Shown: positions 3,416 through 16,227 of the stretch, one piece after another
Position numbering within the stretch: the first letter of the stretch is position 1
Layout: the number at the start of each line of letters is the position of its first letter
From: an uncultured Clostridia bacterium
Lineage (GTDB): Bacteria; Bacillota; Clostridia; Christensenellales; UBA1242
Reading direction: 5' to 3'
NCBI GenBank assembly: GCA_947626955.1
Contig: CANQUB010000001.1
Coordinates: 10,748-74,747, forward strand
Length of the DNA: 64,000 bases
Program-made: the position numbers and the translations under genes
Notes under the pieces: model-generated
The model's database searches: none
What the model was told of the DNA's origin: nothing
What the model saw: the letters and a program-made list of their open reading frames with translations, nothing else

Positions 3416-3555
3416 CTATTTTGTGCAAAAATTTCATTATTTCAGCAGGGCATGAGGGAATTTAACGACAAAAAAGCCTGCTATTTACAATTTTTTTATG
3501 AATTGAAACAAAATAAAAGTTGTAAAAATTGGGTAGGGAGGCTATAATAAAAACC

Positions 3556-4227
3556 ATGATAACACCCGATTTAATTACACGCTCTAGCCGCCACACCCTG
3601 AGTTTGTCCATTCTAAAGGACGGGCAGGTGGTGGTCAAAGCCCCACTAAAAATGCCACGCGAGGCCATAGACAAGTTCGTTTACGAAAAGCAAAACTGGA
3701 TACGCGAAAAGCTGGCCATAATCGAGCAGAACCGCCAAAAATATGACGAGATTTTGTCATACAAAAAATTCTTGCTATTTGGCAACCAGTACTCGCTAAA
3801 GCTGGCCGACGTCAAAAAAATAGAGACTTCGAGCGACCAAATGGTCATTTTAATGCCAAAGACCACCCCCGAAGACAAGATACTAACCCGCCTCAAGAGC
3901 TGGTATAAAAAGCAGGCCAAGATCATCCTTACCGAAAGGCTGGAATATATTTGCTCCAAAATAAAGCTGGTGCCTGCTTCCATGCGAATTTCGGACAGCA
4001 AGGGTAGGTGGGGAGCCTGCAACAGCAAGGGCAGTATCAGCTTCAATTTTAGAATTATCATGCTTGAGCCGGCCATAATCGACTACGTCATCGTCCATGA
4101 GCTATGTCACCTTGTTGAGATGAACCATAGCAAAAAGTTTTGGGCACTGGTCAACACCTTTTTGCCATCGGCCAACGCCTGCAAGGCCAGGATCAAGGAA
4201 TTTGGATTTTTGTTAAGCCTTTTTTGA
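3556..4227 (+). CDS. YgjP-like metal-dependent hydrolase (DUF45 / SprT-like)
   Basis: HELCHLVEMNHSKKFW zinc motif near the C-terminus. The ATG at 3556 (MITPDL..) is preferred over the TTG at 3529, which overlaps the GGGAGG Shine-Dalgarno sequence. Confidence 0.85.
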   Translation: MITPDLITRSSRHTLSLSILKDGQVVVKAPLKMPREAIDKFVYEKQNWIREKLAIIEQNRQKYDEILSYKKFLLFGNQYSLKLADVKKIETSSDQMVILMPKTTPEDKILTRLKSWYKKQAKIILTERLEYICSKIKLVPASMRISDSKGRWGACNSKGSISFNFRIIMLEPAIIDYVIVHELCHLVEMNHSKKFWALVNTFLPSANACKARIKEFGFLLSLF

Positions 4228-4316: not shown

Positions 4317-4700
4317 GTGTCAGTCAACGTTATAAATTTAGCCAAGGTGGGTTATGATTATGTTGCATAGGTTGGTAGCCGGCTTTTTATCCCGTCTCTC
4401 GCCGCCTCTTACAACATGACGACCAACTGGATTAATATCATATGCAGCCAAACACCAAGCAGCACATTAACCAAACCAATTTACGCAACCAACAACACCA
4501 CACATAAAGATAGCTAAATAAAAATTTGGTACAATAAGGCAGTAGCACTTGAAAGCAATTTAGATATGACCAAGCCCTTCTTTAACAAAGATTAAAAGCT
4601 AAAACCCCTCTTTTTGCCCGACCCGAAAAAATTTTTCAGGTGGGGAGTGATAAACTTTGTTAAAAGTTATTCACCCGATTGTTAACAAGATTTCTAGAAT

Positions 4701-4730
4701 TTATTCGTAAAAGGCAGCTTTTACGAATAA
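4701..4730. repeat. perfect palindrome at the left junction (13-bp arms, 4-nt centre gcag); candidate att site or hairpin
   Basis: ttattcgtaaaag (4701-4713) gcag cttttacgaataa (4718-4730). The arms are exact reverse complements. Confidence 0.8.
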
Positions 4731-4783
4731 TTTCCGAGCTATTTGCAGTATATATCAACAATTAATGTATGTCAACAAATTTT

Positions 4784-4812
4784 TTGACTTTTTAAAAATA
4801 TTTTTATAAAAT
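4784..4812 (+). promoter_or_regulatory. sigma-A type promoter for the 69-aa plus-strand gene
   Basis: TTGACT (4784-4789), a 17-nt spacer, then TAAAAT (4807-4812). Confidence 0.5.
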
Positions 4813-4836
4813 ACTTTTAGGAGGAAAAAAAACAAA

Positions 4837-5046
4837 GTGGACATATTAAAAAAAATTTTAGCACCGATATCTAAATTTGTTCTAGAAATCTTTGCCGTAG
4901 TTGCATTTATAATACACACACAAATATATTACGGCAAAGATTACATGAAAACAAAAATAATCGGTGCTATATTTATAATTGCATTTATTGCAATTACAGC
5001 ATTTGAAATTTACTTTAAAATTACTGAACAAAAAAAGTCGGATTAA
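4837..5046 (+). CDS. small membrane protein (two TM helices), the only plus-strand gene of the element
   Basis: 69 aa with a GTG start 12 nt after AGGAGG. It has its own promoter and terminator. Hydrophobic segments are FVLEIFAVVAFIIHT and IIGAIFIIAFIAITAF. Confidence 0.5.
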   Translation: MDILKKILAPISKFVLEIFAVVAFIIHTQIYYGKDYMKTKIIGAIFIIAFIAITAFEIYFKITEQKKSD

Positions 5047-5066
5047 AACCCGACTTTTATTTTTTA
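5035..5066 (+). terminator. intrinsic terminator of the 69-aa gene
   Basis: aagtcgg pairs with ccgactt, followed by ttttatttttt. The stop codon lies in the loop. Confidence 0.6.
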
Positions 5067-5095
5067 TTCAAGAATTTTAAAGTAAATTACCCCTA

Positions 5096-5121
5096 GCTTG
5101 ACATTATTTATAATGTCAAGC
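5096..5121. repeat. perfect 11-bp/4-nt hairpin between the convergent 69-aa gene and rep
   Basis: gcttgacatta ttta taatgtcaagc. No U-tract on either strand. It is flanked by cccctagc at 5090 and 5141. Confidence 0.6.
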
Positions 5122-5154
5122 ACCACACAGTTCCAATGTGCCCCTAGCCGTTTG

Positions 5155-6030
5155 TTAAGAGTATATTGGACGTATTTTTCCAATTAAATTGTAGAACTCA
5201 TACTCACTTATGTCTAACATAGCACTTGTAAACATGAAAGGTTCTATCTTTTCTCGTTTAACTCTACCTAACATTTTTAAGTATAAATTAGAGTTTACAC
5301 TCTCTCTTAACAACATGATCAAGACCTTATCAGTATCATTAAGAGTGTATAAATCATACAAGTCAAGACTTTTGTAAAAGCGGACTTGTGGAATATGTGA
5401 CTTAAAATTCGAATAATCAAAGCTATCAAGAGTAATTTCAAGCCTAGTTAGATCATAATTAAGACCTTGTTCAAGCGTTTTGTTGTAAAGCTTAACAAAG
5501 CCGTTCGAGTTACGAACTCCAAGATATTCAGTCATATTGCCAAGATTATTGTGCTTTAAGTCCACATAAAAATTCTTTTTATATGACCTTAAATCTTTAA
5601 TTAAGCAAACATCTTCACGCCTTGCGGGCATATCTATGGCCAAATCAAAACGGACAAGCTCAAAACCAGCGACAGGAATTAAAGGCTTAATATAATTTAA
5701 AATGTCAAACAATGGAGAATATTGGAATAAACATTTATTCGGGTTAAATTCGATAAAGCAATTATCAAAATCGCTCTTTCTTACGCCATTAAAACCAAGA
5801 CCAAGGACAAAAGAGGAATTATTTTTTAATGTAATATTGACCATGAACTTATAAGAGAAATAAGCTCGACTTTCATAAACATGAAAGTCAAGACTACCAC
5901 CAAGAGACTTTTTATATAAAAAATTATTAAAGCCTTTCATGTGGTATTCGGGAAATCTAAAACGTAAACGCAACATATCACATGATAGTATATTGCCATT
6001 TTTATCAACAACACTAGCAAAATAGTCCAT
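5155..6030 (-). CDS. rolling-circle replication initiator, Rep_trans-like (RstA/RepC type)
   Basis: Motifs VRFDLAIDM, EYLGVRNS, KLYNKTLEQG and LTRLEITL resemble Rep_trans (PF02486) as I remember the family. The ATG at 6030 (MDYFASV) is preferred; the track ORF begins at a GTG at 6075 inside a hairpin. Confidence 0.6.
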   Translation of the reverse strand: MDYFASVVDKNGNILSCDMLRLRFRFPEYHMKGFNNFLYKKSLGGSLDFHVYESRAYFSYKFMVNITLKNNSSFVLGLGFNGVRKSDFDNCFIEFNPNKCLFQYSPLFDILNYIKPLIPVAGFELVRFDLAIDMPARREDVCLIKDLRSYKKNFYVDLKHNNLGNMTEYLGVRNSNGFVKLYNKTLEQGLNYDLTRLEITLDSFDYSNFKSHIPQVRFYKSLDLYDLYTLNDTDKVLIMLLRESVNSNLYLKMLGRVKREKIEPFMFTSAMLDISEYEFYNLIGKIRPIYS

Positions 6031-6069
6031 TCTATTACCTACCTTAATTTTGTAGAAAAATGCAAGGTA

Positions 6070-6251
6070 GGCCACCTCTTAGACAGAGGTGGCCTGAGGG
6101 GGTGCATAAGCACCACCCACCACCCCGACAACATCACAAAACATTTAAGCGTCAATGACTGGGAGACTTGCACAAACCATGAGGCTCGAAACAACCTCAA
6201 ACCGAATATAACAAAGTATTTAAGGGGCTGTTTATAGGGGCGAGCCCCTAT
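6070..6251. promoter_or_regulatory. GC-rich hairpin cluster in the phage intergenic region (candidate origin or packaging region)
   Basis: ggccacctct-tagac-agaggtggcc (6070-6094), ggtgc-ataa-gcacc (6101-6114) and ataggggc-ga-gcccctat (6234-6251). This is a locally GC/CA-rich island inside an AT-rich element. Confidence 0.4.
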
Positions 6252-6288
6252 TACCCCACTACGCACGCAAAATAAACGTTAAAAAGAA

Positions 6289-6444
6289 TTATTTATCCTC
6301 GCTAGCATTCTCGTCGGCTTTCTCTTCTTTTATAGACTTGTTACGGGCTTTACGTTCTTTAATTGCCAAAATAAGCTGGTAAATCTCATAACCGAGCCAA
6401 ACGAGCAAAGCTAAAAGACAAATTACTTTCAAAGCAGTTTTCAT
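6289..6444 (-). CDS. small single-TM protein (51 aa), not in the ORF track
   Basis: ATG at 6444, 6 nt after GGAGGTG. Sequence is MKTALKVICLLALLVWLGYEIYQLILAIKERKARNKSIKEEKADENASEDK. It follows the ATPase gene directly. Confidence 0.5.
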   Translation of the reverse strand: MKTALKVICLLALLVWLGYEIYQLILAIKERKARNKSIKEEKADENASEDK

Positions 6445-6447
6445 GCT

Positions 6448-7416
6448 TTACACCTCCTTTTTATTTGTAGTTTTTGGAATAAGTTTTTGTTTTGGAATTT
6501 TTAAAAGCTCATATCTTTTAAGTGAAGTATAGATATTATCCGAGCCATGAGGCACAGTGTTATATCTTTCCGAATAGCAATAAGTATCATATATTCGGTG
6601 GAAAGGCATGATACCCCATGTAAACTTCTCGTTATCTTCCCTATTGTTCATTTCAAGAATTTTTATGTCCTCACTAGTGGACATTGAACGAATTTGAACT
6701 TTATATAAAAACCAATACTTTTTAAAATTTTCAAGCAAAAACACTTTATTAAGTCGAACACGAACTTGCTTTACGATATTATCACTACACTGGTCAGTTA
6801 CTACTAGATAACCGCCTTGTGTGTAATGACGAAACAAACGCACAAACTCATCAAGACCGAGCAAAACATTCGGGTTAGCATATTCAAACTGGCTACACCA
6901 TGAACCGAATTCGTCAATAAAGACAATACTTAATTTTGCCAACCTATCTTGCAAAAGAATATGCTTTTCAGTGAGCTCAATGGAACTCTCTACATAATGT
7001 TTTACATTAGCCTTCTTAATGTTCAAACGAACAAAATCTTCATAAGGAATGTATTTTTCAAGTGAAAAAAGCTTATAGTAGCTTTCTTTAAGCTCTACAA
7101 CATTACAATTTTTGAAATATCTCTTCTTTACCTTTATAAAGACTGGAATTGAAGAGTAAAGCAAAGGTATATCTTTATTCAAAGCTTTTTTAAACTTTTT
7201 ATGGAAAAGGTTATAAATACGAGTTTTGAAATTAGACCACTTTACTTTAAAACGATTACGGCGTAACAGCTTTAAAGATATTTTAACTCCTCGAAGGGTC
7301 TTTCCGCTACCAAGGCCACCAACATAGCCGAAGGCATTATCAAATTTCTCGAAATATAATTTCAAGAAAATCCACAACACAACGACCAAAACAACAACTA
7401 AGATTATTACTAACAT
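6448..7416 (-). CDS. Zot/pI-like assembly ATPase with an N-terminal TM helix
   Basis: Walker A GGLGSGKT, Walker B LSIVFIDEFGSW, N-terminal TM MLVIILVVVLVVVLWIFL. AGGAG lies 8 nt upstream of the ATG. Confidence 0.6.
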   Translation of the reverse strand: MLVIILVVVLVVVLWIFLKLYFEKFDNAFGYVGGLGSGKTLRGVKISLKLLRRNRFKVKWSNFKTRIYNLFHKKFKKALNKDIPLLYSSIPVFIKVKKRYFKNCNVVELKESYYKLFSLEKYIPYEDFVRLNIKKANVKHYVESSIELTEKHILLQDRLAKLSIVFIDEFGSWCSQFEYANPNVLLGLDEFVRLFRHYTQGGYLVVTDQCSDNIVKQVRVRLNKVFLLENFKKYWFLYKVQIRSMSTSEDIKILEMNNREDNEKFTWGIMPFHRIYDTYCYSERYNTVPHGSDNIYTSLKRYELLKIPKQKLIPKTTNKKEV

Positions 7417-7427
7417 ATATTTAACTC

Positions 7428-7781
7428 CTAAATTAGAATTCCAACGAACATTTTGCCAGCAAGTTTAAACAAGAACAATAACATTTGAACGATATATACA
7501 AAGAACTTAAATATCCAAACAATAGCAAGAGCTATTGTCTTAATAACCGAAAAGACAGCCCTAATAGCCTTTAAAACGCCATTTGTATCGGCACTATATT
7601 CGGCATACTCTTCCCAAACAGTTTCAATATCATTGAACGTCGGAAACCTAGGCATATCTTCGGATGCAGCACTCAAATTAGTTATATAATTTTCAAAGCT
7701 GAAAGTTTTATCTTCCTTGTTATATGCGAAAAGTGCAAAAACCACTGACAAAATGAGCAAAAGTGATATTATTTTTTTCAA
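7428..7781 (-). CDS. secreted/membrane protein (117 aa), minor virion or assembly protein candidate
   Basis: TTG start overlaps the upstream TGA (TTGA) and has an AAAGGTGG Shine-Dalgarno sequence. It has a signal-like N-terminus and a hydrophobic C-terminal third. Confidence 0.5.
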   Translation of the reverse strand: MKKIISLLLILSVVFALFAYNKEDKTFSFENYITNLSAASEDMPRFPTFNDIETVWEEYAEYSADTNGVLKAIRAVFSVIKTIALAIVWIFKFFVYIVQMLLFLFKLAGKMFVGILI

Positions 7782-14664: not shown

Positions 14665-16227
14665 CTACGTTGCGGTGGCGACGGCGCGGGTTTCCCGAAT
14701 AATGTTAACCTTAATTTGGCCAGGATATTCAAGCTCGGCCTCGATCTTCTTGGCTATGTCTTTGGCAAGAACAATCATGCCGGCGTCGTCAACTTCTTCA
14801 GGCTTAACGGCAATACGAATTTCACGACCGGCCTGAATGGCGTAGGAAGTTTGCACGCCCTTAAAGCTGTTGGCAATCTCCTCAAGCTTTTCAAGACGCT
14901 TAACATAGGCATCAAGCGATTCACGCCTTGCCCCTGGCCTTGCACTGGAAATGGCGTCGGCCACTTGAACAAGCATGGCCTCGATGGATTTGTATTCAAC
15001 CCCACCATGATGGGCCTCGATGCAGTGGATGACCTCAGGGCTCTCCTTATACTTTTTGGCCACGTCAACGCCGATGGAAACGTGAGTTCCTTCCATCTCA
15101 AAGTCTAGCGCCTTGCCAATGTCGTGGAGCAGGCCTCCACGCTTTGCAACTGCCACATCGGCTCCAAGCTCACCCGCCAAAAGCCCGGCAAGATATGAGG
15201 TCTCAAGCGAATGCTTAAGTACGTTTTGGCCATAACTTGTGCGGTATTTCAGGCGGCCAAGAATCTTGATAAGCTCGGGATGAAGATTGAAAATTCCGGC
15301 CTCAAAAGCAGCGTTTTCGCCGGCCTCTTTAATGGTCTTTTCAATGTCTTTTTTGACCTTTTCAACGATGTCTTCTACCCTTGCTGGGTGGATTCGACCG
15401 TCGGTGATAAGCTTTTCAAGGGTCAGCCTTGCAACCTCGCGGCGGATTGGGTCAAAGCTTGATAAAATTACAGCCTCAGGGGTGTCGTCAACAATGAGGT
15501 CAACCCCGGTGGCAGTTTCGATTGCACGAATATTGCGGCCTTCACGCCCGATTATTCGGCCCTTCATTTCGTCATTTGGAAGAGGAACAGCGGTCACCGT
15601 CACCTCGGCAGTGTGGTCGGTAGCGCAGCGCTGAATTGCCAAAGTTATTATCTCTTTAGCTTTCTTTTCGCCCTCTTCACGAGCTTCGTTCTCGATGTCA
15701 CGAACAATTACGCCGGCCTCTTTTCTTGCGTCATCTTCGATGGATGCCACAAGCTGTTTTTTGGCCTCGGCCTGGGTAAGCCCCGACACTCTTTCAAGCT
15801 CTTTGTTGATGCCCTCAGCTTTTTTGTCTAGCTCTTTTTCACGGTTGACAAGATCTTGCTTGCCCTTTTCGATTTGGGCTTTAAGCTCGTCGGCCGTGGC
15901 AAGCTTTTTGTCTAGGCTCTCTTCCTTGCGGTCAAGAGCCTCTTCTCTTTGCACAACCCTATTCTCTAGGCGTTGCACCTCGGCACGACGCTCACGAATT
16001 TCGTCGTCCGATTGTTTTTTGAGTTTTAATGATTCTTCTTTTGCTTCAATTAGTGCCTCTTTTTTTAGAGTCTCTGCTTGTGCTTTAGCATCTTCAAGTG
16101 TTTTTTGTGCCTGGTTCAAAGTCTTACCAAAAGACTTCTTCAAAACGGCATAATAAGTCACTGTGCCAAGTAAAATGCCTACAACAAGAGCGACAACTAT
16201 GAGGCCTATTGCTAGTCCTGTGCTCAT
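14665..16227 (-). CDS. rny: ribonuclease Y
   Basis: 520 aa with an N-terminal TM, a coiled coil, a KH domain ([15 protein letters not shown]) and an HD domain (HSLETS..LLHDIGK). Confidence 0.95.

Follow-up and report, generated by a model that had tools for sequence, protein, structure and literature searches.

The closest described counterpart of the locus analysed here is CTXphi of Vibrio cholerae, an integrase-less filamentous phage that enters the chromosome at dif1 by means of XerC. Its attP1 has a 12-bp centre and its attP2 a 5-7-bp centre, the two lie approximately 90 bp apart, the folded attP(+) spans approximately 150 nt, and a single XerC-mediated strand exchange at the arm/centre border is followed by replication, which completes integration (PMC4246890). 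A folded single-stranded DNA (ssDNA) attP has so far been shown only for CTXphi-type phages of Proteobacteria; VGJphi and TLCphi, filamentous phages that also use host Xer at dif, integrate as duplexes through a single dif-like site of normal spacing. The only single-recombinase Xer systems in the published surveys consulted are XerS in streptococci and lactococci, XerH in epsilon-proteobacteria, XerL in Legionellales and XerA in archaea (PMC5357621, PMC9765430), and the original XerS paper treated XerS acquisition as a landmark of Streptococcaceae (PMC1914069). Here, we describe a 64,000-nt stretch (the window) of contig CANQUB010000001.1 from an uncultured Clostridia bacterium of the order Christensenellales, in which a small filamentous prophage is bordered by a palindrome and lies close to a tyrosine recombinase gene. 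All evidence in this analysis is computational. It indicates that the palindrome is likely a dif site served by a XerS-like Xer enzyme and hijacked by an integrase-less filamentous phage along a CTXphi-like route.

The left junction of the prophage reads TTATTCGTAAAAG-GCAG-CTTTTACGAATAA (4701-4730), with 13-nt arms that are exactly reverse-complementary around 4 nt. The 18-mer GGCAGCTTTTACGAATAA occurs at both junctions in exactly two copies (4713-4730 and 10355-10372). Both features had been claimed in the original prediction, made from the letters alone, and both were confirmed. The possibility raised there that the 18-mer is a generic repeat found no support, as no third copy was detected in the 64-kb window (the extent of this check, as opposed to the whole genome) with up to 3 mismatches. 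The chance expectation was 0.11 matches, and two or more copies occurred in 0 of 100 shuffles. Beyond the 18-mer, 6 further bases are similar with one mismatch (TTTCCG vs. ATTCCG). Folded as ssDNA, the 46-nt left-junction stretch reached −12.6 kcal/mol (z = −6.9), which was equalled by 0 of 200 shuffles.

The site is best parsed as 12-bp arms around a 6-bp centre. Accordingly parsed, attL consists of the left arm TTATTCGTAAAA (4701-4712), the centre GGCAGC (4713-4718) and the right arm TTTTACGAATAA (4719-4730), and the shared 18-mer is the dif centre plus one arm. The other junction, attR, consists of a degenerate arm CAATTCTTAAAA (10340-10351), an insert GTT (10352-10354), the centre GGCAGC (10355-10360) and the arm TTTTACGAATAA (10361-10372). 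A scan of all loci for such half-copies of centre plus arm returned matches only in the window and in one unrelated viral contig, L015, described at the end of the text. A tRNA gene was ruled out as the integration target, with no tRNA or tmRNA gene in the window.

Joining the host flanks (up to 4730 and from 10373) reconstructed an empty site, GAATTTATTCGTAAAAG-GCAG-CTTTTACGAATAAATTC, with 17 perfect arm pairs. This 38-bp perfect palindrome is longer than either present junction, and the left-junction palindrome is a shortened version of it. The rebuilt site is colinear on both flanks with the phage-free relatives L001, L003, L005, L007 and L009, and the empty-site evidence was drawn from species whose Xer proteins are 86% and 78% identical to that of the window. 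These relatives carry the orthologous palindrome at the same position between ygjP and serS, where the original prediction had placed the chromosomal site: CTATTCGCAAAA-GACAGC-TTTTGCGAACAA in L001, L003 and L005, a site ending in GACAGG-TTTTGCGAATAA in L008 and L009, and one ending in GACAGG-TTTTGCGAACAA in L007. Because phage-free relatives have it at this position, the full palindrome is assigned to host DNA. Both arms changed jointly between lineages (GTAAAA/TTTTAC in the window vs. GCAAAA/TTTTGC in the relatives). An exact search for the window 18-mer or its arms in the first relatives gave no match because their arms read CGCAAAA, not CGTAAAA, and the sites were located by low-stringency BLAST. 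Uncultured Clostridia were found to encode orthologues of the neighbouring recombinase, and synteny was kept in the relatives (RNase H, PadR, YgjP, gap, serS, xer, dipeptidase, RNase Y, recA and FtsK), with an FtsK carrying a gamma domain encoded approximately 8 kb away.

A scan with the motif TTCGYAAAA-N6-TTTTRCGAA, using one genome per species, retrieved at least 120 loci, almost all from Clostridia (Christensenella, Catabacter, Butyrivibrio, Lachnospiraceae, Oscillospiraceae, Defluviitaleaceae, Halanaerobiales and others). The window has one full dif-like site. Among the matches listed, 80 of 80 motif loci came from different assemblies, and a xer orthologue, mostly 46-60% identical, was present in 55 of 120 8-kb chunks, typically 40-800 bp from the site. 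Also among the matches listed, the 12+6+12 layout held in 117 species with symmetrically co-varying arms. Specifically, the outer arm positions vary across species, and their within-site complementarity was 0.69-0.83, compared with an expected 0.36-0.53 (sd 0.04); the Y/R position was symmetric in 84 sites and mixed in 33. Such symmetric co-variation is expected if one protein binds both arms.

The dif site is the meeting point of the replichores, across which GC skew is expected to pass from positive to negative in either contig orientation. Among the matches listed, 72 species had at least 1.5 kb on both sides of the site. On the left, their GC skew had a mean of +0.067, compared with −0.050 on the right, and the left value exceeded the right in 66 of them (binomial p = 7e-14), with the pattern (+,−) found 45 times and (−,+) once. 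The mean difference was 0.117 at the site vs. 0.024 at control split points within the flanks. Considering the motif distribution, the linkage to xer, the symmetric co-variation of the arms and the terminus GC-skew switch, the palindrome is very likely the dif site of the host chromosome.

The 348-aa recombinase combines an integrase catalytic domain (PF00589) with a SAM-like N-terminal domain (PF02899) and has the catalytic set R199, H293-x-x-R296, H319 and Y329. Its best NCBIfam match was XerS (NF003462; 192.2 bits, 1e-56, model positions 3-356 of 360), which outscored the XerA, XerC and XerD models, and its closest solved relatives are XerD and XerA. As the score is under the curated XerS cut-off (192.2 vs. 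267 bits), the predicted enzyme is best named XerS-like, not XerS. After removal of the prophage, the xer gene is 2.2 kb from the site, with serS between them. The protein length, the adjacency of gene and site and the AAAA/TTTT arms match the traits reviewed for XerS/difSL and XerH/difH, namely a recombinase of approximately 350 aa, a gene adjoining the site and AAAA/TTTT-type arms (PMC5357621). By domain content and gene neighbourhood, the protein is a host Xer enzyme and not a phage integrase, and we infer that it acts on the dif palindrome. No description of a Clostridial XerS-like system was found in the literature searched, the coverage of which was incomplete and makes this weak evidence of absence.

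The element between the 18-mer copies is a small inovirus-type prophage. Its GC content is approximately 34% (4731-10354), compared with approximately 45% in the flanks, and the predicted excised circle has 5,642 bp (4731-10372) and one 18-mer copy. The structural and replication genes all lie on one strand, the minus strand, in a block encoding proteins of 61, 71 and 589 aa, two small membrane proteins, and proteins of 322, 51 and 306 aa. The Inoviridae-like traits include the size of 5.6 kb, the one-strand gene block and a small hydrophobic coat protein with a basic C-terminus. The 322-aa P-loop protein had no direct Pfam match; Pfam Zot (PF05707) was matched by 9 of 26 members of its family. 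Its AlphaFold (AF2) model (pLDDT 80) had 2R2A, the Zot N-terminal domain, as the top PDB fold match, and its fold matches in BFVD included several Inoviridae Zot proteins. Pfam, PHROGs and NCBIfam searches revealed no integrase or recombinase domain in the phage open reading frames (ORFs) and were otherwise uninformative for the phage proteins, except for repeat-driven Yae1_N and FliH matches and a weak Rep_trans match. A tblastn search with Xer across the window matched only 12563-13609 and nothing inside the prophage.

Through homologues of the Zot-like protein, related prophages were located in three further host species (L243, L246/L247 and L252), all at the same dif, and the flanking layout of one dif and one dif/attP hybrid was repeated in L243, L246 and L252. 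A search of the viral collection with the same protein found no relatives. Given the lack of a recombinase in the element, the Zot-like morphogenesis protein and the related prophages at the same dif, the phage is very likely an integrative mobile element that exploits Xer (IMEX), integrated at dif via the host enzyme. Additionally, L249, a contig of 5,319 bp, is a free circular phage genome of approximately 5.3 kb, because its ends overlap by 11 nt and the coat gene reads through the junction. Its attP region is intact and contains one attP, of a two-site type and without a perfect palindrome. Recombination between a hairpin-like chromosomal attB and a phage attP with an 18-bp core, possibly with the 12563-13609 recombinase involved, was the reading put forward in the original prediction, and it is supported by the empty sites in relatives, by the 18-mer being no generic repeat in the window and by the single attP in L249.

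The attP has the same order in all five phages. On the coding-sense strand, a dif-like arm and centre are followed by a 3-4-nt insert and a degenerate arm (site B), a 22-74-nt loop, and then a complementary degenerate arm, an unrelated 6-7-nt centre and an arm complementary to the first (site A). In the window phage, the arm and centre are identical to dif over all 18 nt. Site A, 74 nt from site B, is parsed as TAGTTCGTAAAA (10236-10247), the non-homologous centre GCCTCT (10248-10253) and TTTTAAAAATTG (10254-10265), and its arms are complementary to both arms of site B. The spacers are 9-10 nt on one side and 6-7 nt on the other in all five phages. In the outer stem, 10-12 of 12 arm positions are complementary, and in the inner stem 7-11 of 12. 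By spacing and centre, neither site would be usable as a duplex: site B has the 9-10-nt spacer, and the centre of site A is unrelated to dif. With its arms 9 nt apart, attR in duplex form probably does not work as an Xer site.

The attP strand was predicted to fold into a forked hairpin, in which the outer stem corresponds to the dif arm duplex, an internal bubble to the centre and the inner stem to the degenerate arm duplex. This was the minimum-free-energy (MFE) fold in the window phage, L243, L246 and L249. The energy was −29.2 kcal/mol for the integrated window phage (z −4.8), −30.9 kcal/mol for the rebuilt free form and −17.9 kcal/mol for the free genome L249 (z −4.1). For the free window phage, the outer stem is closed by 4731-4745 on the far side of the circle junction, and the outer stem extends into phage-specific sequence across that junction. 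In L246, where the host dif is asymmetric, site A fits the complement of the right arm and not the host left arm. The match of site A in L246, the stem extension and the 9-10-nt spacing of site B favour intrastrand pairing over two independent duplex binding sites.

The position of the exchange is visible in two relatives. The junctions of L252 share only the flank, the arm and one centre base; the gene-1 end has the centre GTGCCC, and the Rep end has GACAAC. The two centres of L246 share 5 of 6 bases, and here the gene-1 junction retains the phage version (TCTGCC) and the Rep junction the host version (TCTGCA). From these centres, the exchange appears to occur at the arm/centre boundary on the coding-sense strand, without the need for a homologous centre. 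In L243 and the window phage, the centre agrees with dif throughout and masks the exchange point. Carried over from the relatives, the crossover would be at 4718/4719 in attL and at 10360/10361 in attR. By analogy with the related prophages, the left arm and centre of attL would be host-derived and its right arm phage-derived, and the right arm of attR (10361-10372) would be host-derived. An exchange at this boundary would fit a one-strand exchange better than the canonical two-step reaction.

In the route we propose, a single XerS-like recombinase would resolve chromosome dimers at dif in the replication terminus. In the phage ssDNA, site B would pair with site A to form the forked hairpin, a duplex mimic of dif with an open centre. 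Xer would then cut at the arm/centre boundary and swap one strand pair, and replication would convert the exchanged junction into a prophage. After integration, the Rep-proximal end would carry an intact dif (4701-4730) and the opposite end a hybrid whose spacer is 9 nt long (10340-10372). With an intact dif regenerated, the host would keep dimer resolution. The hybrid is probably inert, and excision by Xer may be inefficient. Excision of CTXphi by Xer is likewise inefficient. In line with inefficient excision, L002 and L004 have a decayed remnant beside an intact dif and no clean empty site.

The remnant in these two sister-species strains (L002, ~6290-7400; L004, ~5220-6330) is an insert of approximately 560 bp adjoining the intact dif. 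It contains a DUF2726 gene and no second core copy, and its start, TGCAGTATATATTAACA, resembles the left end of the window phage (4744-4760). The insert looks like what is left of an L243-type phage, which has DUF2726 at its Rep end. The prophage in L252 (7281-7365 vs. 13866-13895) has the opposite orientation to ygjP from those in the window, L243 and L246, and palindromic arms may allow integration in either orientation.

Several observations weigh against the proposed reading. In the window alone, the right-hand 54 kb has uniformly negative skew, and the left flank of 4.7 kb is too short for a skew switch. In the closest relatives, L001-L005, the skew shifts in the right direction and the left side is not positive. 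The recombinase falls short of the curated XerS cut-off as stated above, and the Rep_trans (PF02486) match of the 306-aa protein is weak (E 0.0063, 16.6 bits, cut-off 29.6). The inner stem of L243 is poor in strict register (7 of 12), and one-sided centre homology was seen only in relatives, not in the window phage. Moreover, the integrated product would be identical if the phage used the same host machinery in another way, with the double-stranded replicative form integrating via site B alone, as in VGJphi and TLCphi. Site A and the hairpin would then have another function, for example as a minus-strand origin, packaging signal or accessory binding site. Large intergenic hairpins of filamentous phages, such as the Ff phages, do act as packaging signals or minus-strand origins. 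Site B has the dif centre and a perfect arm, and the attP sites of TLCphi and GGI resemble it in having one good arm, a matching centre and one divergent arm (PMC5357621).

Despite these points, we consider duplex integration rather unlikely. The arms of site B in the duplex are 9-10 nt apart in five of five phages vs. 6 nt in dif, and CTXphi attP1 is inactive as a duplex from its over-long spacing. In addition, site A of L246 follows the complement of the site B arm instead of the host left arm, the stem continues into phage-specific flanks across the circle junction, and the unrelated centres of L252 would not be tolerated by a two-strand exchange. Unlike VGJphi and TLCphi, the phages described here have two complementary sites and a 3-4-nt insertion in the junction site. 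On balance, we lean slightly towards integration through the folded single-stranded attP.

It is very improbable that the palindrome is a private attachment site and that 12563-13609 encodes a mobile-element or phage-serving integrase without a role in dimer resolution. The generic 'Phage integrase' model does match this protein, which scores below the curated XerS, XerC and XerD cut-offs, and some viral contigs have the same motif beside distant (28% identical) recombinases. However, the gene is part of a housekeeping synteny (serS, RNase Y, recA and ftsK) outside the prophage, gene and site are both present in phage-free relatives, in 66 of 72 species the site coincides with the GC-skew switch, and the linkage of site and gene extends across many Clostridial families. 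The remaining option of the original prediction, in which the hairpin would be a nick site of the phage Rep or a replication origin that integration partly duplicated, is hardly credible. A perfect hairpin does adjoin the Rep end of the prophage. However, the full palindrome belongs to the host, exists without the phage and is conserved across species beside xer at the GC-skew switch; the empty site as rebuilt exceeds both junctions in palindrome length, and the free phage L249 has a two-site attP and not a perfect palindrome.

The proposed reading, a dif hijacked through a host XerS-like enzyme, shares several features with CTXphi. In both, an integrase-less filamentous phage is at dif and has two dif-like sites, one with an over-long centre and one with a non-homologous centre of 5-7 nt. 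The sites are tens of nucleotides apart in a forked hairpin of approximately 125-150 nt, the crossover is at the arm/centre boundary (predicted here), an intact dif is regenerated on one side only, and the initiator is possibly of the Rep_trans type (a weak match here). Unlike CTXphi, the hosts are Gram-positive Clostridia, and the site, with symmetrical AAAA/TTTT arms and apparently homodimeric, would serve one recombinase instead of XerC and XerD. The palindromic arms make direct repeats of the two phage sites, whereas those of CTXphi are inverted repeats. The genomes are also smaller (5.3-5.6 kb), with no detectable homology to CTXphi proteins, and the mechanism is deduced from sequence.

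On the host side, the likeness is to XerS/difSL (streptococci and lactococci) and XerH/difH (Helicobacter and Campylobacter): a single recombinase of approximately 350 aa, with XerS as the best family match, a gene usually adjoining the site, arm runs like ...GAAAA / TTTTC..., and a terminus site, here with a gamma-domain FtsK encoded nearby in relatives. The differences are a score below the XerS equivalog cut-off (192 vs. 267 bits), a centre of 6 bp compared with the 11 bp reported for difSL, arms that are nearly perfectly symmetrical whereas those of difSL and difH are imperfect, Clostridial hosts, and serS between site and xer in the window lineage. The 2017 review gives no IMEX for XerS or XerH hosts (PMC5357621). 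In the available excerpt of PMC9765430, the Legionella element LME-1 is likewise at a previously unrecognised, highly palindromic dif of a single recombinase, and the att site of the element exposed the dif. It differs in the XerL family of its recombinase, the dif-xerL distance of more than 400 kb and its Proteobacteria hosts, and that excerpt notes no CTX-type two-site attP for LME-1.

Filamentous IMEX at dif are a known kind of element; a Clostridial XerS-like single-recombinase dif exploited through a CTXphi-style folded attP would be new. We regard it as evenly balanced whether many Clostridia (Christensenellales, Lachnospiraceae, Oscillospiraceae, Defluviitaleaceae, Halanaerobiales and others) use an undescribed XerS-like single-recombinase module with a near-symmetrical 12-6-12 dif, parasitised by Gram-positive filamentous phages via a folded ssDNA attP. 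If so, ssDNA mimicry of dif would be ancient or repeatedly evolved in inoviruses and compatible with a homodimeric Xer, and the view of XerS as a Streptococcaceae landmark would be altered. It would also widen the range of Xer hijacking by filamentous phages to include Gram-positive hosts and a system with one recombinase, and the two-site attP in five phages raises the question of how a homodimeric Xer chooses strands on folded ssDNA. Furthermore, a probable dif and its Xer recombinase are identified for a large set of mostly uncultured gut and rumen Clostridia. The motif TTCGYAAAA-N6-TTTTRCGAA beside xer could serve as a terminus marker in fragmented metagenome-assembled genomes, and it also marks an insertion hotspot of small prophages. 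The features of the locus are summarised in Table 1.

Table 1. Coordinates of the features at the integration locus, in positions of the window
Feature	Position	Strand	Basis
ygjP-like metallopeptidase gene, host left flank	3529..4227	+	PF01863 (8e-61); synteny
attL, intact dif-like site	4701..4730	.	palindrome, orthologous sites of relatives, family-wide motif, xer linkage, GC-skew switch
Integrated filamentous (inovirus-type) prophage body	4731..10354	-	ORFs, composition, related prophages at same site, free circular relative
Sole plus-strand phage ORF, 69 aa, two hydrophobic helices	4837..5046	+	attL end; divergent from the Rep gene
Probable rolling-circle replication initiator, 306 aa	5155..6075	-	weak Rep_trans (PF02486); conserved position in related phages
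Zot/pI-like morphogenesis ATPase, 322 aa	6448..7416	-	N-terminal membrane helix, then P-loop GGLGSGKT
Probable adsorption/minor coat protein, 589 aa	8018..9787	-	signal-like N-terminus, C-terminal membrane helix, repeat array
Probable major coat protein, 71 aa	9787..10002	-	C-terminal hydrophobic helix and basic tail RLIRR, read from sequence
First phage gene, 61 aa	10006..10191	-	conserved first gene of 59-63 aa in relatives
Predicted forked hairpin, attP(+)-like	10231..10376	- (coding-sense)	MFE fold
Phage site A, second dif-like site	10236..10265	.	pairing with site B in MFE folds
attR (phage site B), hybrid junction	10340..10372	.	9-10-nt spacing also in four related phages
serS, host right flank	11114..12406	-	synteny
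Arm-like half-site AACTATTCGTAAAATACT	12511..12528	+	35 nt upstream of the start codon of xer; kept in L001, L007 and L252
Host tyrosine recombinase, XerS-like, 348 aa	12563..13609	+	PF00589 (2.5e-31), PF02899

Among the remaining phage genes, the 71-aa protein ends in ...GLVYGAVRLIRR, a hydrophobic helix and basic tail typical of a filamentous-phage coat protein, and a homologue of 70-72 aa occupies the same position in all relatives. The protein at the Rep position has 290-306 aa in related phages. The 589-aa protein contains a G/Y/E-rich array of 36-nt (12-aa) repeats, ...EGYDEGxxAGxx... (8748-9205), which cause the spurious Yae1_N and FliH matches. The length of the adsorption protein ranges from 331 to 618 aa among related phages, and this wide variation suggests that it is a fast-evolving host-range determinant. 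The 61-aa protein of the first gene had no family match and may be an ssDNA-binding protein. At the position of the 69-aa ORF, relatives have a small ORF or a DUF2726 gene.

Two inverted repeats were found in the prophage. The first, of 25 nt and 96% complementary (4808-4832 vs. 10191-10215), holds the ribosome-binding regions of the 69-aa ORF (plus strand) and the 61-aa first gene (minus strand), and thus these two genes, which diverge from attP in the circle, have a near-identical leader. The second (5007-5088), with 29-nt arms that are 90% complementary and a 24-nt loop, is between the ends of the 69-aa ORF and the Rep gene and could be a bidirectional terminator or a replication origin element.

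On the host side of attR, the dif-to-serS spacer differs between species. In relatives, the interval contains a 291-aa gene or a CD_NTase_C-domain gene. In the window (10373-11113), it is only approximately 740 bp without a long ORF and starts with a terminator-like hairpin, CCGCTTGTTTTTGCGG and then a T-run (10376-10396).

The half-site upstream of xer follows the pattern AACTATTCG[T/C]AAAATA and is approximately 30-45 nt upstream of the start codon in L001 (~9949-9966), L007 (~9948-9965) and L252 (~15106-15125). It is present even where serS parts xer from dif, and it is absent in L246. The half-site may be an autoregulatory operator or a relic of a formerly adjacent dif. Its T/C state agrees with the dif arms in three lineages and not in L252, where the half-site has T and the dif arms have C, so strict co-variation of the half-site with the dif arms was dropped.

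The dif motif was also found in 111 IMG/VR 'viral' contigs (L012-L122), many of 4-9 kb, none of which was related to the proteins of the window phage. A host xer orthologue is beside the site in several of them, such as L118 (58% identical), L096 (53%) and L038 (45%). Either predicted prophage borders overran into host DNA in these contigs, or dif serves small prophages of Clostridia as a general hotspot; many of the contigs probably include host dif or xer sequence. L015 (1-8230; IMG/VR 3300007524_000100), unrelated to the window phage, has the same layout beside a 357-aa xer-like gene (28% identical). Its full site, AATTTCGTAAAA-TATTAA-TTTTACGAAATT, is followed by approximately 7 kb of small genes on one strand and a half-copy, TATTAATTTTACGAAATT, at the contig end, with a further right-arm-like copy approximately 60 nt inside. 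L015 probably represents a further small phage that hijacks Xer, in another host lineage.

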